Shown here: one piece after another, positions 1 through 63,590 of the stretch
How positions within the stretch are numbered: position 1 is the first letter of the stretch
Layout of the letters: each line of letters starts with the position of its first letter
Origin: Escherichia phage ECP2304
Reading direction: 5' to 3' (one strand)
Sequence record: OR880647.1
Length of the DNA: 63,590 nucleotides
Notes under the pieces: model-generated
Database searches by the model: none
The model's input: only the letters and a program-made list of their open reading frames with translations
Told to the model about the DNA's origin: nothing
Position numbers and translations under genes: made by a program

Positions 1-441
1 GAATAATTTATTCCTACTTGATAGAATAATGGAATCGGTACTCCAGAGCGCAAAAACCTAAAACTTTCAGTCAACAGACTAAAAACGGATAGAAACTAAA
101 AGTTAATAAGTAATAACATAAATATATATAAAATAAGGATTTATTAGTAATGTATATAGTACCTATTGGTATTATTTGAATGTTTTTGGGTCATTGTTAA
201 AAAGTCCCAAAACTCACAAAAAGTGAAAGAATACAATTCGTGACAGGATTGTTAATGGAATAAGGTGTATGGATATACAGTATTATTCCAGATTCCGGAA
301 TAATTGGAATAATGGAATAAATTATTGAACTATTGTGATCGGAAGGTATATCAAGCTATAATGCGCTTAATCGCGGGATATTGGAGGAGGACTTTATTGC
401 GCGGTTAACCGGACCAGTAGGAGGGCTGGCCCGGAAGTAGT

Positions 442-768
442 TTAGAGCTGTACAGGTGTGAAGTGGGCTAGCGTATCGTCGGACATAATACCCGACAGTT
501 TTTCGTTTACCCAGTCGGACCAAATGCTATCCGGTTCCTGGCGGTGCACAAACCAGATTTCGGATGTGCCTTCTTTGCGCATCGGTTGCACTTCTGCAAG
601 GAACTTGTCCTGCATAAGGCGCGTGAAGCAGACGCTGGTCATTGGAACCGGCTTTTCGTCTTTATTGTAATAAGGGACCAATATTTTATTTCCGAAGTCT
701 GCAACTTCATAAACTGTTCCTTTGCGAAGGCCTCTGATGTCAGTGTAAGAGCGGATGAACTTTTTCAT
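442..768 (-). CDS. hypothetical protein (108 aa)
   Basis: ATG start, clean ORF in minus-strand gene string inside repeat. Confidence 0.5.
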   Translation of the reverse strand: MKKFIRSYTDIRGLRKGTVYEVADFGNKILVPYYNKDEKPVPMTSVCFTRLMQDKFLAEVQPMRKEGTSEIWFVHRQEPDSIWSDWVNEKLSGIMSDDTLAHFTPVQL

Positions 769-770
769 AT

Positions 771-947
771 TTATTTCCTTACGAACACAGAGCCGACGAA
801 TAATGTTGATTGAGTTGCAGCTTGCTCGATTAATTCGCCAACAAGCTGGGACTGCGTCAGAGGTTTAAGGCCTTCTTTGGCGCGAGCTTCATTTACACGA
901 CGTTGAAGGTCTTTTAGGTATTGAGTTGCGAAACTATCTAATTGCAT
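771..947 (-). CDS. small hypothetical protein (58 aa)
   Basis: ATG at 945-947 preceded by AAGGA RBS; stop 771-773; below track size cutoff. Confidence 0.4.
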   Translation of the reverse strand: MQLDSFATQYLKDLQRRVNEARAKEGLKPLTQSQLVGELIEQAATQSTLFVGSVFVRK

Positions 948-996
948 CTTCTTATCCTTAGGGCTCCCGCAGAAGCCCGTTGAATGTGGTTATCGA

Positions 997-1146
997 CTAT
1001 AACGCTGCAAACATAAGCAGACGAATATTAACTGAAGTTTGGCTATTAAAGTCTTGACATTCTTTGATAATCTCTTCTTCACTTTTACCACTAAGTTTAG
1101 AATATTCTGTGATTGCTTGTTTTAATACAGAATCAAAATTGTTCAT
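997..1146 (-). CDS. small hypothetical protein (49 aa)
   Basis: ATG at 1144-1146 preceded by AAGGAGG RBS; translated by hand to TAG at 997-999. Confidence 0.45.
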   Translation of the reverse strand: MNNFDSVLKQAITEYSKLSGKSEEEIIKECQDFNSQTSVNIRLLMFAAL

Positions 1147-1156
1147 TTTATCCTCC

Positions 1157-1771
1157 TTATGCGTCCAGACCGTTGTATTTGCGCCAGGCGTAGAACTGAA
1201 TGGCGACAGTTGTTCCGTTGTAAGAAGGCATTGCAGCTTTCATCTCTTTCAGCGCCGGCGTGCGGCCCAGTTCCTTCAGAAGCTTGTCACCCATTGCCCA
1301 CACTTCGGCAGTTTTTCCTTTAAGGGGCTTGCGAGCGCCATTTTTGAAATCGCAGCGAGCAGCTTTTGCATCCTGTTTTGGAGCGGCAGCTTTTGGCTCT
1401 TCAATTTTGATTTCAGAAACCTGCGTGGCAGCTTTTGCGTGTTTCATATCTTTCTCTTCCTCCTGCTCCAAAGCTTTGAGGCAGCTTTTGACGATTTCCG
1501 GATTTACCATCGGGCGCAGTACCGAGGCGCTAGCAGCTGGAGCGGCGGTCGGTGCTGGGGCTTTCTGCTCCGGCTTTTGAGCTTTTTCGTGATCGCGCAG
1601 CACCTGAAGGACTTCCTTTTCGACGATGTAAAAACCGATATCGTCCTGATGGATAAGCTGTTCGTGTGCGTCGCGTGCAACCTGGCCCCAGCGAGTTTTC
1701 AGAGCGCGGCGTGCATTCGTTTTCATGGTGTAGCGCATTTTGTCCTGTTCGCGGTGAGTTACTTTAGACAT
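1157..1771 (-). CDS. hypothetical protein (204 aa), basic N-terminus and Ala/Pro-rich linker
   Basis: ATG at 1769-1771 preceded by AAAGGAG RBS; in-frame with track ORF 1157..1816. Confidence 0.6.
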   Translation of the reverse strand: MSKVTHREQDKMRYTMKTNARRALKTRWGQVARDAHEQLIHQDDIGFYIVEKEVLQVLRDHEKAQKPEQKAPAPTAAPAASASVLRPMVNPEIVKSCLKALEQEEEKDMKHAKAATQVSEIKIEEPKAAAPKQDAKAARCDFKNGARKPLKGKTAEVWAMGDKLLKELGRTPALKEMKAAMPSYNGTTVAIQFYAWRKYNGLDA

Positions 1772-1844
1772 GGTATAGCTCCTTTCGTTAATGTTAGTTT
1801 GCTTATTACTGCCCACCGTAATGATGAGCAGTGTATAAGAAAAC

Positions 1845-2093
1845 TTACTGCACGATTGCTACGAAATCGGCGGTTGCGATATCCATGCTTGCAAACGCTT
1901 TGACGGTGTAGCTGGTATCTGCCGCGGCGTTGAAGTCGCTCAGGAACTGTTGTACCGCGTGCTCATGGTTGAGCATTACGTCTACATTGCAGTCCCAGCT
2001 ATAAACCTTGCGCTGACCGAAACCTTTAACTGCAATACGCGCGCCTTTGGTGTTGGTTGGTGCCAAAAATTTGGTGACGATAGAAGTAGCCAT
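1845..2093 (-). CDS. hypothetical protein (82 aa)
   Basis: ATG with GAGGA RBS. Confidence 0.55.
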   Translation of the reverse strand: MATSIVTKFLAPTNTKGARIAVKGFGQRKVYSWDCNVDVMLNHEHAVQQFLSDFNAAADTSYTVKAFASMDIATADFVAIVQ

Positions 2094-2166
2094 GATGTAA
2101 TCCTCGTTTTGTTTAAGTTGACTTATTATTGCCCAGTCAGATCAACTAGGCAAGATATAAATCAGC

Positions 2167-2391
2167 TTATTTAACCATCAAGGCCCATCTTTTATAGCCG
2201 TTCAGCTCCATTCTATGACCGTGGTCGTTGCAGTAACGTTGGATATTATTAAAGTCGTTATCGTTCATATCGCTGACGTCAATATTAAAATAGTTGCGCT
2301 TTGCAGGTGTAACGTATTGGGATAACTGCATTGAGTACAGATGTTCAATGTTGTCGATAATAGCTTGCTGAACTTTAGTGATAGTAGCCAT
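2167..2391 (-). CDS. hypothetical protein (74 aa)
   Basis: Internal ATG at 2389-2391 preceded by GGAGGTG RBS; track ORF extends to 2451. Confidence 0.5.
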   Translation of the reverse strand: MATITKVQQAIIDNIEHLYSMQLSQYVTPAKRNYFNIDVSDMNDNDFNNIQRYCNDHGHRMELNGYKRWALMVK

Positions 2392-2781
2392 GATACACCT
2401 CCTAATGTGGTTAAGCAGTATTGCTTTGTTGAAGTAATAATAGCCTTGCATCGTGATATTGAATAGGCCAAACGTGCTATTTTGATATTGTTTTGCATCT
2501 AGTGAAAATCATGCTTGTATCGCATATTTAGCACTAATGGCCTAACTAACATCACACGATCTGGTCTACGCGCGTGCATACATACATATAAGGAGTGCCG
2601 GACAGGATCGGACCGACCAGGGGCGCTCAACCGTCTCTGTCCGTCCTGTAAGCTGGTCCCCGGACTGGTCCAAAATATTTTTATAAAAAGATGCAAAAAG
2701 GTGTAGACATATGATCAATCTAACCCTACTATATACACATACCGCAAGGGTACTACAAATTAACTTAAAGGGGTTTACATC

Positions 2782-2985
2782 ATGTCTATTCGTAGCGTTA
2801 TCTGTGTAATGGTTGCAAACAATAATTTTGGTTTCGTAGAAGGTGCAGAGTATAAAATGGATCTTAAGACTCGTTGCATTATTAAAGGTGAAGAGGAATG
2901 GCGTGCAGTGGTAGAAGATCGCGGCGATATCTACATCTATAGTTCTGATACAATGAAAACTATTGCCGTCTTCGAATTTAACTAA
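2782..2985 (+). CDS. hypothetical protein (67 aa)
   Basis: ATG with AAAGGGG RBS; first plus-strand gene after divergent intergenic region. Confidence 0.55.
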   Translation: MSIRSVICVMVANNNFGFVEGAEYKMDLKTRCIIKGEEEWRAVVEDRGDIYIYSSDTMKTIAVFEFN

Positions 2986-3053
2986 GCTAACTTATACAAT
3001 GGGCATTAGTACAGTGCCCATTAATAAGCTAACTAATTATAACGAGGTGTATT

Positions 3054-3239
3054 ATGTCTACGAACACTGTGAAGTCTGTAAATAATAGCAACAGAACATT
3101 TAAAGTTATCTATTATGGCGAATATATTGGAGACGTTACAGCTCCCAGCCGCATCGCTGCGGAAGACTTCGTCCGTACAGAGATGGAGCTTGGAATCGCC
3201 GATTTTGCAGCCATTATCGAACTGGTAGAGGTATTCTGA
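3054..3239 (+). CDS. hypothetical protein (61 aa)
   Basis: ATG with GAGGTG RBS. Confidence 0.5.
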   Translation: MSTNTVKSVNNSNRTFKVIYYGEYIGDVTAPSRIAAEDFVRTEMELGIADFAAIIELVEVF

Positions 3240-3240
3240 T

Positions 3241-3381
3241 ATGCAACGCAAATACACGCTTACACGCGCACAGCACGCGTTATTGATTGCAGCTATGCGC
3301 GCAGAATATGCAGTACACGGCTGGCATAGCGCCATGATGCGAGGTAAAAGCATATATGCAGACATATGCTCGCAAGAATAA
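3241..3381 (+). CDS. small hypothetical protein (46 aa)
   Basis: TGAtATG coupling to upstream gene; hand-translated to TAA at 3379-3381. Confidence 0.35.
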   Translation: MQRKYTLTRAQHALLIAAMRAEYAVHGWHSAMMRGKSIYADICSQE

Positions 3382-3944
3382 CGCACACAGCAGCACCACA
3401 GCGAGCTAAAGCTCAAAGGTAATGGTAATGCATTACCAACACACAATAAGCACGCTGTACCCAGCAAAGCGGCGCTAATTTCAACACTCACAGGCTGTAC
3501 GTTAACGCGTACGGCCTGCTCTGCTATATGCACGCCATGTATATAGCCAGCTCACAATGCACATCAATATAATTACGAATGAAATGGATTCGTCTGGAAG
3601 AATAACAATTCTTACAGTCACAGACCGGTCCAATGAGCCAACTCATAGACCCCACCTAGGATCATCAGGGTACTAATAATCACCCGAGGGCCCTTATCCA
3701 TCCTGATAGTAAGTGCTTGCCTAAATCTTACCCATCACTTTACTATCCACATACATCCATGACCCCACCTACCTTCTTTTTGAATATATTGCGCTCATCC
3801 TTTCTAAATATATGGATTTTGGTAGTAAATTCTGAGTCGTCAACGTATAATCCGTCTTGTAGCTGCCCCATAGCTACCATCTTTAAGCGGATGCAACCAA
3901 TTTCTATCAATTCTCACCAGTTTTAGAGCATCAAGGAGGTATTT

Positions 3945-40309: not shown

Positions 40310-40579
40310 TTAATCCTCTTCTACTCTATTCATAAATTCCAAATAACGACGCATAGTTTCTTCTTTTGTGGAAGAATTAAAATGCGACCAACCGTTATCT
40401 AACGAATAACCCCAGTAATACTCACCATACTTCTTCCGCATAGCTGGGATGGGGCATTTCCTTCTTTCAAGCTTAGGATTCTGCGATCTTATATACGCTT
40501 GTTTTTCTTTAAGGCTTAATGCTTCAAACCAATCAGCTTGCTCGTGTGGCTTTAAATGACTTGGAGGTACAGGAATCAT
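40310..40579 (-). CDS. hypothetical protein (89 aa)
   Basis: Clean ORF inside modification cluster. Confidence 0.5.
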   Translation of the reverse strand: MIPVPPSHLKPHEQADWFEALSLKEKQAYIRSQNPKLERRKCPIPAMRKKYGEYYWGYSLDNGWSHFNSSTKEETMRRYLEFMNRVEED

Positions 40580-55910: not shown

Positions 55911-58247
55911 TTATTTGCTTAAGTCCTTGAAAACACTCTCAATTGACTCGTCTATATACCATCCCAATCCCCTGAAATTACGCTTCAACGCATCTTCACG
56001 CGTGACTGGAACGAGCGCACCCATGTCTACAAGTTGCTTGATGGTAAGGTCTGTTGCAGTACCTGCTCCCATCCTGTGATTCTTGAATGCTGCTAGACCG
56101 TAGGTTCTGCGTGTGATAGTTGCCTTTGGAATAATACCGTCAACGCGCAGCTCCTTACGATCACATGCAATCTTACCGCCAAGATAGTCTTTGCAGACCT
56201 GACAGATAGCCTTCACACGTGTTTCGTCATCACCGCCAATAGTACCTTTTTCCCATGCGTTGATCATAATGTCCTGACCGTGCGTAACAAAATCTACCGC
56301 CCATTGCATGTGGTTTGGTTGCACCACAGGATTGATCCAGTTTTCCCCCACCGCTAACAGAGAAGCAAGACGCAAAGCTTTAAGGTGTGCACGGTTCCAA
56401 GGCTGACGGATTGCTTCGTCTTTGGTTGCGTTAATGTGTTCGTCACATAACAGGTTAAACTCCCGTTCAATCCTTTCAGCTTCAGGACTTAACTGGACTG
56501 TGACAGTTTGAAACTTCGCCATTGTTACTAAGGTGTGGTTAACAAGATGGCACACCATGTCCTTTAACTGCTGGGGCATTATAATCTCAGGGTTTTCGTT
56601 TGCAGGAACTCGATCTCCTTCATATTGCACAATGTGGAAACGGGACAAGAAACCGTCTTCCATCATTTCACGGGTTAATGCTTCAAAGAAAGTGTCCGGT
56701 GTTGTTTCTCCCAGCACGCTGAACGCTACCCCTTCCATCGTTTTGGTATTATTAGCCTTATCAGAATATCCAATACCGCCAACAACATCCATTGCGCCAG
56801 ATTTTTGATATACATCTGTGATAGTTTGCTTCAGAGTATAGTTTGCAGTACCGGGCTGAGCTGTTGCCATACCTTTGATGGTTTTGCCAAACTCTCCGTT
56901 AATGTTCACAAACGAACTATGATCCGCAAAACTTTTACGCAATGCAGGACCGGACGCATAGTTAGTCATGTCTACAAATTCATGAACTTGCGGTAATTGC
57001 TCCCCTACTTGCTTGCAAATATAGCTGGGTCCGGCGTGAAGCATCTCTTTACCCACACCTGAGCGAGCGATAAGCACAAAGTAACCGTTCAGCCCTGTGT
57101 TGGTGATAGTATTCCATACCTTACCGCACACACCAGACAGAAATGCTAACGATGCGGTGATTGCAATTTCTTTCACGGGACGTTGCGATGCTTTGTAGAT
57201 GTACTTCGCAAGCTCCCCAGCAAGCCCCGGCGGCCACTCAATAGCGGTTGCATCAATAGACGTACTTTCTGCAACTACTATTTGACCGGAAGGACTAACT
57301 GTGGTTACAGGCATCTCTGTTACTTGCTGCATTGTGCTGTGTGCGGCTTGCATACGGGCAGCATAATCTCGCGCCAGCGCCGCTACGTTTTCCTGGGCAA
57401 TGCGCTCACGCTCCATGCGACCGCGGCACATCCGCAAACAACGGTCAATATGAACATTGTTCTTATTAGCCTTCTCACGTTTGCCCAGTGCACTGTAACG
57501 GAACAGACGGCGACATTGCTCATTACTTTCTGTATAGAATGCATACATAGAAATAAGAGCAAGGTCTGCTTCAGACTGGGAAGGGAATCCCATTTCAACC
57601 CATTCACCATTGAATAGGCGTGCATACTTATCCCCGTTGTCCGCTTCAAGCGCGCGCTGGTGAATAGTTGCATCGTCTTCTACCGGATCTTTTTCTACCA
57701 GTTCAATTTCATATGTCTTGCGCTGAAGATCAATTTCATTCACAAGCATAGTAAGATAATGATCGCGTTCGGCAACTGGTTTGTTATAGACAGGATTACC
57801 CGTGCAGATAATAAAACGCTCCTGACTATAAACTTCGACACCATCACGTCGACGACCTTTGCCGATGTTTCCTCTTAACCACAGGTGAACACCCAAGCCT
57901 GAGCGACTTACTTCGGTGTAAGTATCGAACGCGGTCATGATCTGTTCGAAGCGGCGCAACTGTTCCGGCGTCGTGTGCTTCTTGGGATCTGGTTCATTGG
58001 TTGCGTTCTTTACATCCAGGTCGATGCAGGTGAACGGGTCTTGTGCAGTAAGCACGAAGCCTATATAAGGTTTGTTGAAATGAGCAGCACAACCTTTGGC
58101 AGCTTCAAACGTCATAAGCATATCCGGATCGGTAACGTCCGCTGCCATCAAACGTCCGATATCGTTGTCCCATATTAATGGGCGTTTATCTTCACCAGCA
58201 ATAGCCCACTGATTGTATTGTTTAATTTCATCAGGAAATAATTTCAT
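55911..58247 (-). CDS. DNA primase-helicase (PrimPol-like N-terminus, SF3/D5-like helicase C-terminus)
   Basis: 778 aa; acidic DxD-type motif TCIDLDV, GVHLW; Walker A ARSGVGKE; ATG at 58245-58247. Confidence 0.6.
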   Translation of the reverse strand: MKLFPDEIKQYNQWAIAGEDKRPLIWDNDIGRLMAADVTDPDMLMTFEAAKGCAAHFNKPYIGFVLTAQDPFTCIDLDVKNATNEPDPKKHTTPEQLRRFEQIMTAFDTYTEVSRSGLGVHLWLRGNIGKGRRRDGVEVYSQERFIICTGNPVYNKPVAERDHYLTMLVNEIDLQRKTYEIELVEKDPVEDDATIHQRALEADNGDKYARLFNGEWVEMGFPSQSEADLALISMYAFYTESNEQCRRLFRYSALGKREKANKNNVHIDRCLRMCRGRMERERIAQENVAALARDYAARMQAAHSTMQQVTEMPVTTVSPSGQIVVAESTSIDATAIEWPPGLAGELAKYIYKASQRPVKEIAITASLAFLSGVCGKVWNTITNTGLNGYFVLIARSGVGKEMLHAGPSYICKQVGEQLPQVHEFVDMTNYASGPALRKSFADHSSFVNINGEFGKTIKGMATAQPGTANYTLKQTITDVYQKSGAMDVVGGIGYSDKANNTKTMEGVAFSVLGETTPDTFFEALTREMMEDGFLSRFHIVQYEGDRVPANENPEIIMPQQLKDMVCHLVNHTLVTMAKFQTVTVQLSPEAERIEREFNLLCDEHINATKDEAIRQPWNRAHLKALRLASLLAVGENWINPVVQPNHMQWAVDFVTHGQDIMINAWEKGTIGGDDETRVKAICQVCKDYLGGKIACDRKELRVDGIIPKATITRRTYGLAAFKNHRMGAGTATDLTIKQLVDMGALVPVTREDALKRNFRGLGWYIDESIESVFKDLSK

Positions 58248-58248
58248 C

Positions 58249-58773
58249 TTATACACCCAATTTGTTACAACCGTGGTTCTTGTGAAAATTGTAATCGGTT
58301 AATGCTTTACTTACAGCCATTTGTGCATCTTCAAAAGTATCGTATACTCCAAGATATTTTGAAGTCCCGTCGACGCCTATACGAGCTTGCCATTTATTAG
58401 TACCTTTGTGAAATGTAACTCCATTTACTCCAGAGGTATTATTGCGTTTCTTACTTTGATTTCGTCCATTTTCTTTGTGAGTAACAAGACGCAAGTTTTC
58501 AATGCGGTCGTCGTAACGAATGTGATTAATATGGTCTATTTCCATACCTTCCGGTATTGGACCATTATGCATTTCCCATACTATGCGTGAACGGCGATAT
58601 AGTTTGCCTTTAAGAGCAATACGAACATATCCTTTATCCGTAAGCGTACCTGCAACGCAACCTTCTTTCGCTCTTGCGCCCATATCTTTCTTCCAATACA
58701 ACACTCCTTCATTATATTGGAATATTACCGCCCATTGTGGGAAAGCTTTAATTTCAGCGGGAAACAGTTCCAT
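58249..58773 (-). CDS. HNH homing endonuclease with AP2 DNA-binding domain
   Basis: HNH motif EIDHINHIRYDDRIENLRLVTHKEN; AP2-like SGVNGVTFHKGTNKWQARI. Confidence 0.7.
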   Translation of the reverse strand: MELFPAEIKAFPQWAVIFQYNEGVLYWKKDMGARAKEGCVAGTLTDKGYVRIALKGKLYRRSRIVWEMHNGPIPEGMEIDHINHIRYDDRIENLRLVTHKENGRNQSKKRNNTSGVNGVTFHKGTNKWQARIGVDGTSKYLGVYDTFEDAQMAVSKALTDYNFHKNHGCNKLGV

Positions 58774-58782
58774 TGCAAATCC

Positions 58783-59028
58783 TTACTTAGAAGCTAGTTT
58801 TAACATGGATATAATTGCCGCCTTAATATTATCAACTGTGTCCCGAGCTTCTCGCTTGGACGCAAATGTGTTAACATATTCCACGCTATCCAAAACTTTA
58901 ACGTATAAGCGATAGCCTTCACCTTCCACATGTTCAACAACATAACCGTTGATGTCTAAAGACTTGCCAAAATAGCAACATGAAGATTTTGAATTAACCT
59001 GTTTCATGAAAGGATCAATTGTAGCCAT
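58783..59028 (-). CDS. hypothetical protein (81 aa)
   Basis: ATG 59026-59028 after GGAGGA; track ORF extends to 59076. Confidence 0.45.
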   Translation of the reverse strand: MATIDPFMKQVNSKSSCCYFGKSLDINGYVVEHVEGEGYRLYVKVLDSVEYVNTFASKREARDTVDNIKAAIISMLKLASK

Positions 59029-59302
59029 AAATCTGTTTCCTCCGCCATTCTTCATATGCTGAATTATTTGCATCATATACTTCGCAAGCGTCTTTCATGC
59101 TGTCATACAGTCCAAGGAAAGTTCGCCTTGTTTCCCCGCCTGCGTCTACCCATGTTAATCGGGCGAGCCATTTACCAGTTTTGTGATCGAAAGTAACACC
59201 CTCACGCCCGCTTACATTCTCCCGAGGCACTCGAGGTTTCCGGCGTGCAAGCCCGCGACCTTTGAAATTACTGCCCGGGACAGTCCTGCACTTACGACCC
59301 AC
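59015..59302 (-). CDS. AP2-domain DNA-binding protein
   Basis: AP2-like SGREGVTFDHKTGKWLARL; non-ATG start (GTG near 59302 after GGAGG, or TTG at 59320); start uncertain. Confidence 0.4.
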   Translation of the reverse strand: MGRKCRTVPGSNFKGRGLARRKPRVPRENVSGREGVTFDHKTGKWLARLTWVDAGGETRRTFLGLYDSMKDACEVYDANNSAYEEWRRKQIYGYN

Positions 59303-59507
59303 GACCAACCTCCGACACAATCCGACCAGCGTGCAACATTAAGACAGGCTCTGCAACTTCGCGCACGTAAACGTAAACGTTAGCAATTTTAACTTCGCCC
59401 GGCAGCTTGCCGCGCAGCGAACACAACTTGCGACGGCTAAGACCGAAGCGCTTTTCAATTTCTGATGTGGTTATGTATTTAAGATCAAATTCTTTTTGAC
59501 AGTCCAT
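59292..59507 (-). CDS. hypothetical DNA-binding protein (71 aa), first gene of minus-strand arm
   Basis: Strong RBS TAGGAGGTAGGT then ATG; putative HTH segment. Confidence 0.5.
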   Translation of the reverse strand: MDCQKEFDLKYITTSEIEKRFGLSRRKLCSLRGKLPGEVKIANVYVYVREVAEPVLMLHAGRIVSEVGRGS

Positions 59508-59613
59508 ACCTACCTCCTAACAGCACTATACACAATCCATAGTAATGCATCCACAATTATTCCACCTGAAGTTATGATGTGAGAGGATTGTTAATATATA
59601 ACCACATGTGATG

Positions 59614-59704
59614 GAAAGTTTTGGGTAGGAATAGTTGGTGCTCCACAGTTTGCGCAATGTGACCGAAAGTTTTGTGAGTTTTGCGAAGTTTTGCGAAGTT
59701 TTGT
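59614..59704. repeat. Array of GA(A)AGTTTTG direct repeats in right-end non-coding region
   Basis: Five copies including tandem GCGAAGTTTTGCGAAGTTTTG at 59681-59701. Confidence 0.7.
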
Positions 59705-59761
59705 GGTGCCACTGTTGCTAAAAACTTTAATAAAAACAATAAGTTGGTGCAGTAAGTTTTT

Positions 59762-59787
59762 GCGTTTTGGGGTAAAACGCATTTTTT
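59762..59787 (+). terminator. terminator-like hairpin in right-end non-coding region
   Basis: GCGTTTT-GGGGT-AAAACGC followed by ATTTTTT. Confidence 0.4.
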
Positions 59788-60336
59788 ACCCTAACACCCA
59801 AATCCCGACTGTTAGTAAAAAACGTATATAAATCAATAGCATAGATACTAAATGAATAGTGATTGGAATGGGTAGAAATCCAAATGATGGAAGTGGAATA
59901 ATTTATTCCTACTTGATAGAATAATGGAATCGGTACTCCAGAGCGCAAAAACCTAAAACTTTCAGTCAACAGACTAAAAACGGATAGAAACTAAAAGTTA
60001 ATAAGTAATAACATAAATATATATAAAATAAGGATTTATTAGTAATGTATATAGTACCTATTGGTATTATTTGAATGTTTTTGGGTCATTGTTAAAAAGT
60101 CCCAAAACTCACAAAAAGTGAAAGAATACAATTCGTGACAGGATTGTTAATGGAATAAGGTGTATGGATATACAGTATTATTCCAGATTCCGGAATAATT
60201 GGAATAATGGAATAAATTATTGAACTATTGTGATCGGAAGGTATATCAAGCTATAATGCGCTTAATCGCGGGATATTGGAGGAGGACTTTATTGCGCGGT
60301 TAACCGGACCAGTAGGAGGGCTGGCCCGGAAGTAGT

Positions 60337-60663
60337 TTAGAGCTGTACAGGTGTGAAGTGGGCTAGCGTATCGTCGGACATAATACCCGACAGTTTTTCG
60401 TTTACCCAGTCGGACCAAATGCTATCCGGTTCCTGGCGGTGCACAAACCAGATTTCGGATGTGCCTTCTTTGCGCATCGGTTGCACTTCTGCAAGGAACT
60501 TGTCCTGCATAAGGCGCGTGAAGCAGACGCTGGTCATTGGAACCGGCTTTTCGTCTTTATTGTAATAAGGGACCAATATTTTATTTCCGAAGTCTGCAAC
60601 TTCATAAACTGTTCCTTTGCGAAGGCCTCTGATGTCAGTGTAAGAGCGGATGAACTTTTTCAT
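60337..60663 (-). CDS. hypothetical protein (repeat copy of 442..768)
   Basis: Identical duplicate in right repeat. Confidence 0.5.
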   Translation of the reverse strand: MKKFIRSYTDIRGLRKGTVYEVADFGNKILVPYYNKDEKPVPMTSVCFTRLMQDKFLAEVQPMRKEGTSEIWFVHRQEPDSIWSDWVNEKLSGIMSDDTLAHFTPVQL

Positions 60664-60665
60664 AT

Positions 60666-60842
60666 TTATTTCCTTACGAACACAGAGCCGACGAATAATG
60701 TTGATTGAGTTGCAGCTTGCTCGATTAATTCGCCAACAAGCTGGGACTGCGTCAGAGGTTTAAGGCCTTCTTTGGCGCGAGCTTCATTTACACGACGTTG
60801 AAGGTCTTTTAGGTATTGAGTTGCGAAACTATCTAATTGCAT
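60666..60842 (-). CDS. small hypothetical protein (repeat copy of 771..947)
   Basis: Identical duplicate. Confidence 0.4.
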   Translation of the reverse strand: MQLDSFATQYLKDLQRRVNEARAKEGLKPLTQSQLVGELIEQAATQSTLFVGSVFVRK

Positions 60843-60891
60843 CTTCTTATCCTTAGGGCTCCCGCAGAAGCCCGTTGAATGTGGTTATCGA

Positions 60892-61041
60892 CTATAACGC
60901 TGCAAACATAAGCAGACGAATATTAACTGAAGTTTGGCTATTAAAGTCTTGACATTCTTTGATAATCTCTTCTTCACTTTTACCACTAAGTTTAGAATAT
61001 TCTGTGATTGCTTGTTTTAATACAGAATCAAAATTGTTCAT
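60892..61041 (-). CDS. small hypothetical protein (repeat copy of 997..1146)
   Basis: Identical duplicate. Confidence 0.45.
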   Translation of the reverse strand: MNNFDSVLKQAITEYSKLSGKSEEEIIKECQDFNSQTSVNIRLLMFAAL

Positions 61042-61051
61042 TTTATCCTCC

Positions 61052-61666
61052 TTATGCGTCCAGACCGTTGTATTTGCGCCAGGCGTAGAACTGAATGGCG
61101 ACAGTTGTTCCGTTGTAAGAAGGCATTGCAGCTTTCATCTCTTTCAGCGCCGGCGTGCGGCCCAGTTCCTTCAGAAGCTTGTCACCCATTGCCCACACTT
61201 CGGCAGTTTTTCCTTTAAGGGGCTTGCGAGCGCCATTTTTGAAATCGCAGCGAGCAGCTTTTGCATCCTGTTTTGGAGCGGCAGCTTTTGGCTCTTCAAT
61301 TTTGATTTCAGAAACCTGCGTGGCAGCTTTTGCGTGTTTCATATCTTTCTCTTCCTCCTGCTCCAAAGCTTTGAGGCAGCTTTTGACGATTTCCGGATTT
61401 ACCATCGGGCGCAGTACCGAGGCGCTAGCAGCTGGAGCGGCGGTCGGTGCTGGGGCTTTCTGCTCCGGCTTTTGAGCTTTTTCGTGATCGCGCAGCACCT
61501 GAAGGACTTCCTTTTCGACGATGTAAAAACCGATATCGTCCTGATGGATAAGCTGTTCGTGTGCGTCGCGTGCAACCTGGCCCCAGCGAGTTTTCAGAGC
61601 GCGGCGTGCATTCGTTTTCATGGTGTAGCGCATTTTGTCCTGTTCGCGGTGAGTTACTTTAGACAT
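61052..61666 (-). CDS. hypothetical protein (repeat copy of 1157..1771)
   Basis: Identical duplicate. Confidence 0.6.
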   Translation of the reverse strand: MSKVTHREQDKMRYTMKTNARRALKTRWGQVARDAHEQLIHQDDIGFYIVEKEVLQVLRDHEKAQKPEQKAPAPTAAPAASASVLRPMVNPEIVKSCLKALEQEEEKDMKHAKAATQVSEIKIEEPKAAAPKQDAKAARCDFKNGARKPLKGKTAEVWAMGDKLLKELGRTPALKEMKAAMPSYNGTTVAIQFYAWRKYNGLDA

Positions 61667-61739
61667 GGTATAGCTCCTTTCGTTAATGTTAGTTTGCTTA
61701 TTACTGCCCACCGTAATGATGAGCAGTGTATAAGAAAAC

Positions 61740-61988
61740 TTACTGCACGATTGCTACGAAATCGGCGGTTGCGATATCCATGCTTGCAAACGCTTTGACG
61801 GTGTAGCTGGTATCTGCCGCGGCGTTGAAGTCGCTCAGGAACTGTTGTACCGCGTGCTCATGGTTGAGCATTACGTCTACATTGCAGTCCCAGCTATAAA
61901 CCTTGCGCTGACCGAAACCTTTAACTGCAATACGCGCGCCTTTGGTGTTGGTTGGTGCCAAAAATTTGGTGACGATAGAAGTAGCCAT
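61740..61988 (-). CDS. hypothetical protein (repeat copy of 1845..2093)
   Basis: Identical duplicate. Confidence 0.55.
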   Translation of the reverse strand: MATSIVTKFLAPTNTKGARIAVKGFGQRKVYSWDCNVDVMLNHEHAVQQFLSDFNAAADTSYTVKAFASMDIATADFVAIVQ

Positions 61989-62061
61989 GATGTAATCCTC
62001 GTTTTGTTTAAGTTGACTTATTATTGCCCAGTCAGATCAACTAGGCAAGATATAAATCAGC

Positions 62062-62286
62062 TTATTTAACCATCAAGGCCCATCTTTTATAGCCGTTCAG
62101 CTCCATTCTATGACCGTGGTCGTTGCAGTAACGTTGGATATTATTAAAGTCGTTATCGTTCATATCGCTGACGTCAATATTAAAATAGTTGCGCTTTGCA
62201 GGTGTAACGTATTGGGATAACTGCATTGAGTACAGATGTTCAATGTTGTCGATAATAGCTTGCTGAACTTTAGTGATAGTAGCCAT
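62062..62286 (-). CDS. hypothetical protein (repeat copy of 2167..2391)
   Basis: Identical duplicate. Confidence 0.5.
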   Translation of the reverse strand: MATITKVQQAIIDNIEHLYSMQLSQYVTPAKRNYFNIDVSDMNDNDFNNIQRYCNDHGHRMELNGYKRWALMVK

Positions 62287-62676
62287 GATACACCTCCTAA
62301 TGTGGTTAAGCAGTATTGCTTTGTTGAAGTAATAATAGCCTTGCATCGTGATATTGAATAGGCCAAACGTGCTATTTTGATATTGTTTTGCATCTAGTGA
62401 AAATCATGCTTGTATCGCATATTTAGCACTAATGGCCTAACTAACATCACACGATCTGGTCTACGCGCGTGCATACATACATATAAGGAGTGCCGGACAG
62501 GATCGGACCGACCAGGGGCGCTCAACCGTCTCTGTCCGTCCTGTAAGCTGGTCCCCGGACTGGTCCAAAATATTTTTATAAAAAGATGCAAAAAGGTGTA
62601 GACATATGATCAATCTAACCCTACTATATACACATACCGCAAGGGTACTACAAATTAACTTAAAGGGGTTTACATC

Positions 62677-62880
62677 ATGTCTATTCGTAGCGTTATCTGT
62701 GTAATGGTTGCAAACAATAATTTTGGTTTCGTAGAAGGTGCAGAGTATAAAATGGATCTTAAGACTCGTTGCATTATTAAAGGTGAAGAGGAATGGCGTG
62801 CAGTGGTAGAAGATCGCGGCGATATCTACATCTATAGTTCTGATACAATGAAAACTATTGCCGTCTTCGAATTTAACTAA
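62677..62880 (+). CDS. hypothetical protein (repeat copy of 2782..2985)
   Basis: Identical duplicate. Confidence 0.55.
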   Translation: MSIRSVICVMVANNNFGFVEGAEYKMDLKTRCIIKGEEEWRAVVEDRGDIYIYSSDTMKTIAVFEFN

Positions 62881-62948
62881 GCTAACTTATACAATGGGCA
62901 TTAGTACAGTGCCCATTAATAAGCTAACTAATTATAACGAGGTGTATT

Positions 62949-63134
62949 ATGTCTACGAACACTGTGAAGTCTGTAAATAATAGCAACAGAACATTTAAAG
63001 TTATCTATTATGGCGAATATATTGGAGACGTTACAGCTCCCAGCCGCATCGCTGCGGAAGACTTCGTCCGTACAGAGATGGAGCTTGGAATCGCCGATTT
63101 TGCAGCCATTATCGAACTGGTAGAGGTATTCTGA
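62949..63134 (+). CDS. hypothetical protein (repeat copy of 3054..3239)
   Basis: Identical duplicate. Confidence 0.5.
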   Translation: MSTNTVKSVNNSNRTFKVIYYGEYIGDVTAPSRIAAEDFVRTEMELGIADFAAIIELVEVF

Positions 63135-63135
63135 T

Positions 63136-63276
63136 ATGCAACGCAAATACACGCTTACACGCGCACAGCACGCGTTATTGATTGCAGCTATGCGCGCAGA
63201 ATATGCAGTACACGGCTGGCATAGCGCCATGATGCGAGGTAAAAGCATATATGCAGACATATGCTCGCAAGAATAA
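63136..63276 (+). CDS. small hypothetical protein (repeat copy of 3241..3381)
   Basis: Identical duplicate. Confidence 0.35.
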   Translation: MQRKYTLTRAQHALLIAAMRAEYAVHGWHSAMMRGKSIYADICSQE

Positions 63277-63590
63277 CGCACACAGCAGCACCACAGCGAG
63301 CTAAAGCTCAAAGGTAATGGTAATGCATTACCAACACACAATAAGCACGCTGTACCCAGCAAAGCGGCGCTAATTTCAACACTCACAGGCTGTACGTTAA
63401 CGCGTACGGCCTGCTCTGCTATATGCACGCCATGTATATAGCCAGCTCACAATGCACATCAATATAATTACGAATGAAATGGATTCGTCTGGAAGAATAA
63501 CAATTCTTACAGTCACAGACCGGTCCAATGAGCCAACTCATAGACCCCACCTAGGATCATCAGGGTACTAATAATCACCCGAGGGCCCTT

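Follow-up and report, generated by a model that had tools for sequence, protein, structure and literature searches.

Genome setting of a gene-free gap

The 63,590-bp DNA sequence of Escherichia phage ECP2304 (record OR880647.1), analysed at its full length and called here the window, contains an 829-bp gene-free gap (59508-60336, 35% G+C) just ahead of its replication genes. This gap, its short repeats and their proposed reader, a primase-helicase, are the subject of the present study. By megablast, the window belongs to a coliphage of the genus Seuratvirus (Queuovirinae). Positions 1-3695 and 59896-63590 form an exact direct repeat of 3,695 bp, with 0 mismatches, and the unit genome measures 59,895 bp with 44% G+C. 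Rightward genes extend from about 2,780 to 32,800. Leftward genes occupy the stretch from 59,507 down to 32,834 and also, inside the repeat, that between about 2,700 and 442 (62,590 and 60,337 in the right copy), the divergent start region being located near 2,450-2,780. According to the lists of open reading frames (ORFs), the gap is enclosed by a 108-aa gene (60337-60663) and a 71-aa gene (59292-59507), both on the minus strand. Since the genes on either side are directed leftward, the gap is situated inside the leftward series, downstream of the 108-aa gene and upstream of the 71-aa gene, which heads the replication block. The gene of the 781-aa primase-helicase (55911-58256, minus strand) is part of the same block; the gap lies 1.25 kb upstream of its start, with 3-4 small genes in between. 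The left boundary of the terminal repeat, 59896, falls in mid-gap, and the portion of the gap from this position on is also found at 1-441.

The ORFs inside the gap show no protein-level conservation and most relatives annotate no gene there. Indeed, the first-pass annotation had described about 830 bp of structured non-coding DNA across the repeat junction, and the features that it listed are all present, with coordinates shifted by 1-3 nt. A gap of 630-830 bp and about 35% G+C occupies the same place, always just upstream of the replication block, in 34 of 34 related phage records and also in the metagenomic relatives examined. In Vid5 (locus L250), the primase block is not directly preceded by such a gap. 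Over the gap region, sequences with 95-99% identity are those of the E. coli phages RCIP0359, OddieOddie, KS_W4, PLYYY01, GottfriedDienst and others; their records open at the terminase gene, and the gap region is internal in them.

Short repeats cluster in the gap around an AT-rich core

We call S the short repeat that occurs at homologous positions in every gap, and P the lineage repeats of the left part, or left cassette, of the gap. In the window, the S consensus is (A)AGTTTT(T)G. Five direct copies of GA(A)AGTTTTG, reported in the first-pass annotation upstream of the first minus-strand gene, are all found on the plus strand at 59614-59703: GAAAGTTTTG at 59614-59623 and 59665-59674, GAGTTTTG at 59676-59683, and GAAGTTTTG at 59685-59693 and 59695-59703, the last four with a period of 9-10 bp. 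Tandem Repeats Finder detects here a period-10 array (59667-59703, 3.8 copies, score 60), the second-highest scoring in the window. The tandem GCGAAGTTTTGCGAAGTTTTG is present as described, at 59683-59703 instead of 59681-59701. Similarly, the inverse motif CAAAACTCACAAAA exists but is placed at 208-221 (60103-60116 in the right copy) and not at 211-224; its 14 nt match 59670-59683 exactly in inverted orientation, and the match extends to 23 nt at 87%.

The gap contains 10 G-T4/5-G motifs, grouped within 520 bp; 2,000 dinucleotide shuffles gave a mean of 0.99 ± 0.98 and at most 7, and the best 520-bp window elsewhere in the genome contains three; the cluster in the gap is the densest of the genome. 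Between 59618 and 60118, 10 strict and about 19 relaxed S sites could be counted. A second repeat family, GGAATAA(T), escaped the first reading and is represented by eight copies in the gap versus 0.27 expected. Outside the gap, copies of GGAATAAT stand mostly at gene junctions, where they read as a ribosome-binding site followed by ATG.

The arrangement of the S sites is ordered. Seven plus-oriented sites (59618, 59669, 59678, 59688, 59698, 59756 and 59764) occupy the left part of the gap, followed by a spacer (59800-59880) with 70-78% AT. Three minus-oriented sites, CAAAAAC, TAAAAC and TAAAAAC (59946-59981), then form the left flank of an AT-rich core (59982-60076), which with 80-90% A+T is the AT-richest part of the region and a candidate DNA-unwinding element. 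On the right flank (60077-60118), one plus site GTTTTTG (60077) and a GTCA centre are followed by three minus sites, AAAAAGTC, CCAAAACTC and ACAAAAAG (60093-60118), with a period of about 9 bp. The S sites bracket the core in opposing orientations; in addition, a second AT-rich spacer, in which the terminal-repeat boundary falls, separates the plus sites (59618-59769) from the minus sites (59946-59981) that they face. Because the terminal repeat includes the segment 59946-60118, each end of the window carries it; its second copy, flanking S sites and AT core together, lies at 51-223 in the left copy of the repeat, with 50 bp separating it from the left extremity. Only the right copy is accompanied by the seven-site plus array.

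The S repeat varies with the C-terminal domain of the primase-helicase

The right ~390 bp of the gap, from 59946 on, are conserved genus-wide, and the 76-bp AT-rich centre of the core is about 98% identical in all sequences compared (classes A and B, defined below, and two further contigs). On both sides of this centre, the S blocks differ between lineages. The window carries CAAAAACCTAAAACTTTCAG and GTTTTTGG-GTCA-TTGTT-AAAAAGTC-CCAAAACTC-ACAAAAAG; at the homologous positions, Seurat-type phages have CTATAAACTTATAAACTTTCAG and GAGTTTATG-GTCA-TTATA-TAAACTC-TATAAATTT-TCATAAACC, and the two further contigs GATTTTATA-GTCA-...TATAAAATT-CATAAAATT and GGTTTTATA-GTCA-...TAAAACAAA-ATAAAATTA-TAAAAC, respectively.

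Classes A to D were defined on the last ~120 residues of the 781-aa primase-helicase, and 21 related loci were compared. Each gap contains 5-10 GT4-5G and 0-1 GTTTAT in class A (nine loci), versus 0-2 GT4-5G and 6-9 GTTTAT in class B (ten loci), and classes C and D (L265 and L266), two further alleles from metagenomes, have TTTTAT instead. The right-flank layout is the same in the relatives, with GTTTAT in class B or TTTTAT in classes C and D, and the sites at 59946-59981 are replaced in class B phages by TATAAAC-TTATAAAC. Within the last 120 residues of the protein, identity is 42% between A and B, 37% between A and either C or D, and 95% between C and D, while the helicase cores of A and D are 84% identical. 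Since C and D share both TTTTAT and a near-identical tail, the S repeat follows the C-terminal domain and not the helicase core.

To place this relation in the genome, every ORF of the window was compared with the complete genomes of SA80RD (GTTTTG) and CAjan (GTTTAT) and with partial loci. For the majority of structural and replication genes, the two terminase subunits among them, identity to SA80RD and to CAjan alike is 95-100%. The primase-helicase is 90-100% identical in all GTTTTG phages but only 76% in all GTTTAT phages. In a tblastn search with its C-terminal 179 residues, 18 of the 31 Seuratvirus records belonged to class A (17 at ≥99%, STP-SP5 at 91%) and the other 13 to class B (55%). 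The start of blastn homology in the gap matches this split exactly, at query position 439 in class A and 442 in class B, and the ten records whose gaps were read all agree with the pairing of class and S repeat. A homologue search with the C-terminal 182 aa alone returned nothing, whereas the full-length query yielded about 1,600 homologues.

The first ~290 residues, as well as the corresponding codons, are virtually identical in classes A and B. Divergence begins abruptly near position 300 and is greatest in the last ~120 residues. Such an abrupt change near codon 300 indicates recombination inside the primase-helicase gene, which swapped the helicase and winged-helix half.

Left cassettes are mosaic and carry an independent repeat system

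In contrast to its right part, the left part of the gap is not common to the genus. The 388-bp cassette of the window (59508-59895) is shared only by nine near-identical phages, Salmonella phage STP-SP5 (79% identity) and two metagenomic contigs. The first-pass annotation named conservation of the repeats in relatives as a check: the S motif is found, in variants, in every gap, and the S array is kept in STP-SP5 with shifted positions; the cassette around them is not common to the genus.

Other cassettes contain many-copy P repeats: ATAGTG/CACTAT in SA80RD, SA126VB, WildeMaa, CSP1, Dru_SM1, phiG7, KS_A8, L249 and L253, and ATAGGGT/ACCCTAT in Seurat, CAjan, SLUR76, slur01, L251, L252 and L265. 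The combinations of S and P observed are GTTTTG with GGAATAAT or CACTAT, GTTTAT with CACTAT or ACCCTAT, and TTTTAT with ACCCTAT or GGAATAAT. The two repeats assort independently and so represent separate specificities. Exact-pattern scans of IMG/VR for GGAATAAWTTATTCC and AACTTTCAGTCAAC gave mostly random matches and one relevant contig.

Next to the P arrays is the gene of a 248-260-aa protein without known function (phrog_27223); this gene is absent from the lineage of the window, and the phylogeny of the protein agrees with the P type. The ACCCTAT clade includes a member of this family that is only 59% identical, and members of the CACTAT clade are 57-68% identical to each other. These data suggest that a second DNA-binding protein, missing from this lineage, could read the P repeats. 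In the place of the left cassette, 7-10 copies of CACTAT/ATAGTG or ACCCTAT/ATAGGGT, in both orientations, were noted in three loci (L005:1709-2010, L002:2880-3130 and L264:1490-1790).

Predicted domain architecture of the primase-helicase

The N-terminal part of the 781-aa protein is predicted to be an archaeo-eukaryotic primase-polymerase (prim-pol) with a helix-bundle domain (Pfam PF22763). Its PDB profile matches include PriRep5 of the Staphylococcus aureus pathogenicity island (SaPI) SaPI5 (7OLA, E = 2.5e-31) and the NrS-1 prim-pol (5e-19). The helicase core corresponds to Pfam DUF3987 and was modelled with a predicted local distance difference test score (pLDDT) of 90. In Foldseek, the best matches of this model are archaeal and eukaryotic MCMs (probability 1.0, E of 6e-7 to 1e-5). 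The model thus places the core among AAA+ proteins of the pre-sensor-II-insert clade, as an MCM-like and not a superfamily 3 (SF3) helicase. The C-terminal domain is predicted to fold as a winged helix, and the protein is the proposed initiator that would read the S repeats.

The terminal-repeat boundary lies between the opposing S sites

A perfect 15-nt palindrome, GGAATAATTTATTCC (GGAATAA-T-TTATTCC), is located at 59895-59909, and the terminal repeat begins at its second base, 59896. The palindrome is kept exactly in STP-SP5, which is otherwise 79% identical, and in L247 and L266; in RCIP0359, the centre base alone differs. Seurat and SA80RD lack the palindrome. At the other end, the homology with Greed and KurtStettler starts at window position 3697, within two bases of the right end of the repeat. 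In phage 9g, of the sister genus Nonagvirus, a physical DNA end has been mapped in the untranslated region heading the early/replication genes and a terminal repeat was inferred (PMC4276943), and phage iggy, from a related lineage, has a terminal repeat of 1,091 bp (PMC10484667). Several points, namely the match to the palindrome, the start of the Greed and KurtStettler homology and the precedents of 9g and iggy, argue that the boundary at 59896 is real.

The terminase subunits TerS and TerL are 99% identical in phages that have unrelated sequence at the boundary position. As the terminase is conserved despite unrelated local sequence, the end is either specified from the conserved core, at a distance of 50 bp, or set in a way that does not involve sequence recognition by the terminase.

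Besides the divergent start region, the 3,695-bp repeat itself contains some ten small genes without known function. Its right end (3695/3696) is bracketed by two copies of an 11-nt direct repeat, GACCCCACCTA, at 3648-3658 and 3761-3771. A second internal copy of 60214-60400, hinted at by matches in two places in some records, does not exist in this window.

A candidate iteron-type replication origin

The densest repeat cluster of the genome, the opposing orientations around an AT-rich core and an S motif that co-varies with the winged-helix class support the suggestion, cautiously made in the first-pass annotation, that the region might include an origin. We consider it reasonably probable that the gap is an iteron-type replication origin, working like those of SaPI Rep and of the alpha protein of P4. 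This proposal starts from features that are seen directly (the clustering of the repeats, their layout, their co-variation with the primase tail) and from predicted folds; from these, we infer that binding, melting and the start of replication take place at the gap. In the proposed mechanism, the C-terminal winged helix of the prim-pol/MCM-like helicase would bind the S iterons. Opposing iterons would bracket the 80-90% AT core (59982-60076), where the DNA would be melted, the helicase would load itself and the prim-pol domain would prime synthesis. In the left cassette (59508-59895), the seven lineage-specific iterons of the same orientation would face the minus iterons at 59946-59981 across the second AT-rich spacer; the five GA(A)AGTTTTG copies would constitute a lineage-specific auxiliary iteron array with class A specificity.

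Several observations weigh against such an origin. The S motif is a short T-run of low information content in AT-rich DNA and, genome-wide, AAGTTTTG is not enriched (9 versus 4.8 expected); since the local cluster is nevertheless extreme, the signal resides in the clustering. GC skew merely tracks gene orientation and cannot place an origin. The 388 bp highlighted by the first-pass annotation are not conserved genus-wide and no more than 2-4 S sites are present in other cassettes, which means that the five-copy array cannot be a general requirement. The 21 loci reduce to about seven independent lineages with three classes of C-terminal domain. In addition, the S sites and the primase C-terminus are only 1.3-3.6 kb apart, so that linkage in a mosaic block contributes to the co-variation or could explain part of it, although the identical N-terminal half of the primase and the differently assorting genes in between argue against a single inherited block. 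As for the protein, the helicase core gave no match to SaPI Rep, to the helicase part of 7OLA or to other SF3 helicases; for this domain, SaPI Rep, the closest functional model, is therefore an analogue and not a relative. Finally, the C-terminal winged helix of cellular MCMs is not known to act as a sequence-specific reader of origins.

Alternatively, the gap could serve mainly in transcription control, with promoters of the replication (middle) genes and operators for a phage regulator such as the 71-aa helix-turn-helix (HTH)-like protein. Its location directly upstream of the replication block fits this role, as do a pattern-predicted promoter placed here by annotators of relatives, the resemblance of GGAATAAT copies to extended -10 elements and the two promoters predicted in the equivalent untranslated region of phage 9g (PMC4276943). 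The best leftward candidates near the first gene are weak, with 8-9 of 12 positions: 59583->59556 (CTCACA-16-TG-n-AATAAT, extended -10) and 59553->59525 (TGGATG-17-TATAGT). A shared AGGATTGTTAAT box, which the first-pass annotation recognised with coordinates about 1 nt off, occurs at 59584-59595 and 245-256 (60140-60151 in the right copy), and three matches are found in total versus 0.58 expected (one shuffle in 100 attains as many as three). The box can be lengthened to 17 nt, GTGA[G/C]AGGATTGTTAAT, and the resulting GTGAGAGGATTGTTAAT box (59579-59595, plus strand, with a second copy at 60135-60151) adjoins the element 59583->59556; in KS_A8 and phiG7, a related box, AAGGATTGTTTTAATATAGTG, stands at the homologous place beside a better promoter, TTGCAA-17-TATAGT. 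Given that both boxes abut promoter-like elements, a replication-gene promoter is plausible, and one may well be located in the left 80 bp of the gap. On the other hand, the early promoters expected in the first-pass annotation are not supported as such, since sigma-70-like matches are not enriched (6 versus 3.6 ± 1.6) and the gap is not at the divergent start region. Moreover, the S repeats track the primase tail and not the HTH-like protein, and an operator region would not typically consist of about 13 sites that extend over 500 bp to the left and right of an AT-rich core. We therefore regard control of transcription as unlikely to be the main function of the gap, but it can coexist with an origin.

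A packaging site, at which the terminase or another nuclease would recognise the repeats and the palindrome and thus make the left end of the terminal repeat, appears still more doubtful. Arrays of short repeats lie beside the terminal repeats of T7-type phages, the boundary, located within the gap, coincides with the second base of a perfect palindrome that persists in otherwise diverged relatives, and the mapped end of 9g lies in a comparable region (PMC4276943). However, TerS and TerL remain 99% identical where the local sequence is entirely different, the S repeats track the primase and not the terminase, and the palindrome together with the GGAATAAT family may do this job without them. 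It is very improbable that the repeats belong to a plus-strand non-coding RNA of about 200 nt, running from a weak promoter (59550-59578, a 9/12 match) to a hairpin with T6 (59761-59787). Such a hairpin followed by T6, with no plus-strand gene upstream, would suit this RNA, but STP-SP5 and every other cassette either lack this hairpin or have a different one, no Rfam family matches, the minimum-energy fold is not that of a terminator and inverted repeats also occur outside the putative transcript. That the repeats are functionless low-complexity sequence, accumulated by chance in an AT-rich spacer, is hardly credible: the motif is indeed short, T-rich and not in excess over the whole genome, but the ten-fold local enrichment over dinucleotide shuffles yields a cluster unique in the genome, all copies are replaced in concert by another variant in other lineages, and the motif is retained in STP-SP5 despite shifted positions.

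If the gap is an origin, the terminal repeat may be connected with it. The boundary is at a conserved palindrome, in the AT-rich spacer that separates the opposing arrays, 50 bp from the first core iteron, and the terminase does not co-vary with it. For these reasons, the left end of the 3.7-kb repeat might be made inside the origin, and the end and the duplication of the repeat might be set by origin firing (a start of synthesis by the prim-pol/helicase, or a nick, at the palindrome), with no need for sequence-specific cutting by terminase. We hold this extension to be quite improbable; if it were correct, each mature genome would carry the core origin at both ends.

Comparison with known replication systems

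In SaPI origins, 6-12 iterons of 5-7 nt are split equally between the two flanks of an AT-rich centre, and those of one flank point the opposite way to those of the other. Their reader is a winged-helix domain at the C-terminus of a helicase that loads itself and either carries a prim-pol or is paired with one; iterons and C-terminal domain form element-specific pairs (PMC9371898). The candidate origin of ECP2304 is similar in its short iterons of opposing orientation on both sides of an AT core and in the predicted C-terminal winged helix. Its prim-pol is homologous to that of PriRep5 and the domain order is the same, in 781 versus 790-797 aa. Differences concern the helicase core, which is MCM-like (AAA+) here but SF3 in SaPIs, and the position of the origin, 1.3 kb upstream of the gene in the phage and immediately downstream of it in SaPIs. 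Furthermore, SaPIs are satellites, while the origin proposed here is that of a virulent 60-kb siphophage, with extra repeat families and a terminal-repeat boundary. Considering the MCM-like core and the upstream origin, we would describe the system as one that works like those of SaPIs and P4, without filing it in the SaPI Rep family.

The P4 alpha protein combines, in about 780 aa, a primase, a helicase and, at its C-terminus, a winged-helix domain for origin binding, whose targets are short octamers in repeated copies; its sites form two separate clusters, ori and crr, which flank the gene. A single combined protein of about 780 aa and two clusters of sites are thus common to both systems. 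The primase and helicase of P4 alpha are of a different class, and P4 alpha is not among the sequence or fold matches obtained here. Like the protein of ECP2304, the prim-pol-MCM fusions of prophages (BcMCM of Bacillus cereus) and the Cch helicases of the staphylococcal cassette chromosome mec (SCCmec) bring together an archaeo-eukaryotic prim-pol and an MCM-like AAA+ helicase, in one polypeptide or as partners, on mobile elements of bacteria, and we know of no cognate iteron origin with co-varying specificity described for them. The Cch helicases are also mentioned in the study of SaPI origins (PMC9371898).

Among related phages, 9g likewise has an untranslated region (473-603 bp) heading its replication genes, a mapped physical end and an inferred terminal repeat; its authors, however, read the region only as a divergent promoter region and described no iterons or origin (PMC4276943). 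The public record of 9g has been re-linearised at the DNA polymerase gene, so that the correspondence in position with the gap is a presumed one. In the searchable literature, we found no replication origin and no initiator specificity for Seuratvirus, Nonagvirus or other Queuovirinae, and nothing on the termini of Seuratvirus. The gap most likely represents a known kind of origin that the searchable literature has not previously described for this phage group.

Queuovirinae phages serve as models and as therapy candidates, for instance in the BASEL collection. If the proposed origin is correct, these phages would gain a mapped origin and a testable pairing between GTTTTG, GTTTAT or TTTTAT and the class of winged helix, useful for engineering and explaining the mosaicism of their replication modules. 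It would also provide an instance of origin reading by the C-terminal winged helix of an MCM-like helicase from a bacterial virus, and a boundary inside this origin would raise the concrete question of how long terminal repeats arise.

Other elements of the gap

The hairpin of the left cassette was reported in the first-pass annotation as terminator-like. A GCGTTTT/AAAACGC hairpin (59761-59781) followed by T6 does exist on the plus strand, within a segment (59752-59787) composed of two plus S sites (59756-59762 and 59764-59769) and an inverted S-like arm (59773-59778). Its folding energy is -12.5 kcal/mol (z = -2.9), and the minimum-energy fold uses an alternative pairing. A terminator is the weaker interpretation, as no plus-strand gene lies upstream and the hairpin is not kept in STP-SP5. 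In the gap, terminator-like sites are not enriched (2 versus 1.0 ± 1.1), and relatives have at this place two S sites and a G/C-rich island but no conserved terminator. The hairpin reads better as an inverted pair of iterons. With Rfam 15 covariance models, no match in the window reached the gathering score and one weak match had E = 3.1; a tRNA search found none.

On the right side of the gap, a lineage-specific patch (60135-60226) includes the second AGGATTGTTAAT box and a cluster of GGAATAAT (60177-60215). This cluster is an inverted repeat, ATTATTCCAGA / TCCGGAATAAT, which resembles two divergent extended -10 elements. Dru_SM1 combines the patch with a left cassette of CACTAT type, and the patch is accordingly a separate module. 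Near the left end of the gap, at 59549-59557, a single DnaA-box-like sequence, GCATCCACA, agrees at 7 of 9 positions; RCIP0359 has GCAGCCACA instead, so it is not conserved.

A promoter-like sequence, TTGTGA-18-TATAAT (60228-60257, plus strand), is the sole sigma-70-like site conserved genus-wide. It is associated with a structured element of about 80 nt with GGAGG motifs, and the two together span 60228-60330 on the plus strand. The structured region (60228-60336) forms two hairpins; of its 2-3 GGAGG motifs, one lies in the loop of a hairpin. The hairpins are maintained through compensatory changes in L253, L265, L266, SLUR76 and STP-SP5, and RNAalifold predicts 22 pairs, seven of them changed on both sides. 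In some relatives, a plus-strand HNH gene follows the element; here, it runs antisense into the 108-aa gene. From its structure and position, it could be an antisense or small RNA, or a 3' structure of the leftward operon.

Neighbouring genes and other candidate binders

The first gene downstream of the gap encodes the 71-aa protein (phrog_11967, 59292-59507, minus strand), of unknown function and HTH-like by eye, which is conserved next to the primase in all relatives. As a binder of the repeats it was discarded, because its classes match neither S nor P cleanly: proteins from phages with the same S are only 52-56% identical, versus 67-71% for a class with a different S. The terminase was likewise rejected as an S binder, TerS and TerL being 99% identical in both classes, as was the 250-aa neighbour (phrog_27223), absent from this window. 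An 89-aa ORF (40310-40579) that differs between SA80RD and CAjan occurs in class B phages and is missing from most class A phages, and it was not retained either.

Pfam returned nothing for the 71-aa, 97-aa, 108-aa and 250-aa proteins, and their PHROGs are families of unknown function; a 101-aa ORF gave only a weak AP2 match. Between the 71-aa gene and the primase (58249-59320, minus strand) lie an HNH endonuclease with an AP2 domain (58249-58773), the 97-aa ORF and the 101-aa ORF (59015-59320). These three ORFs look like homing-endonuclease insertions or their remnants, and their presence varies among relatives.

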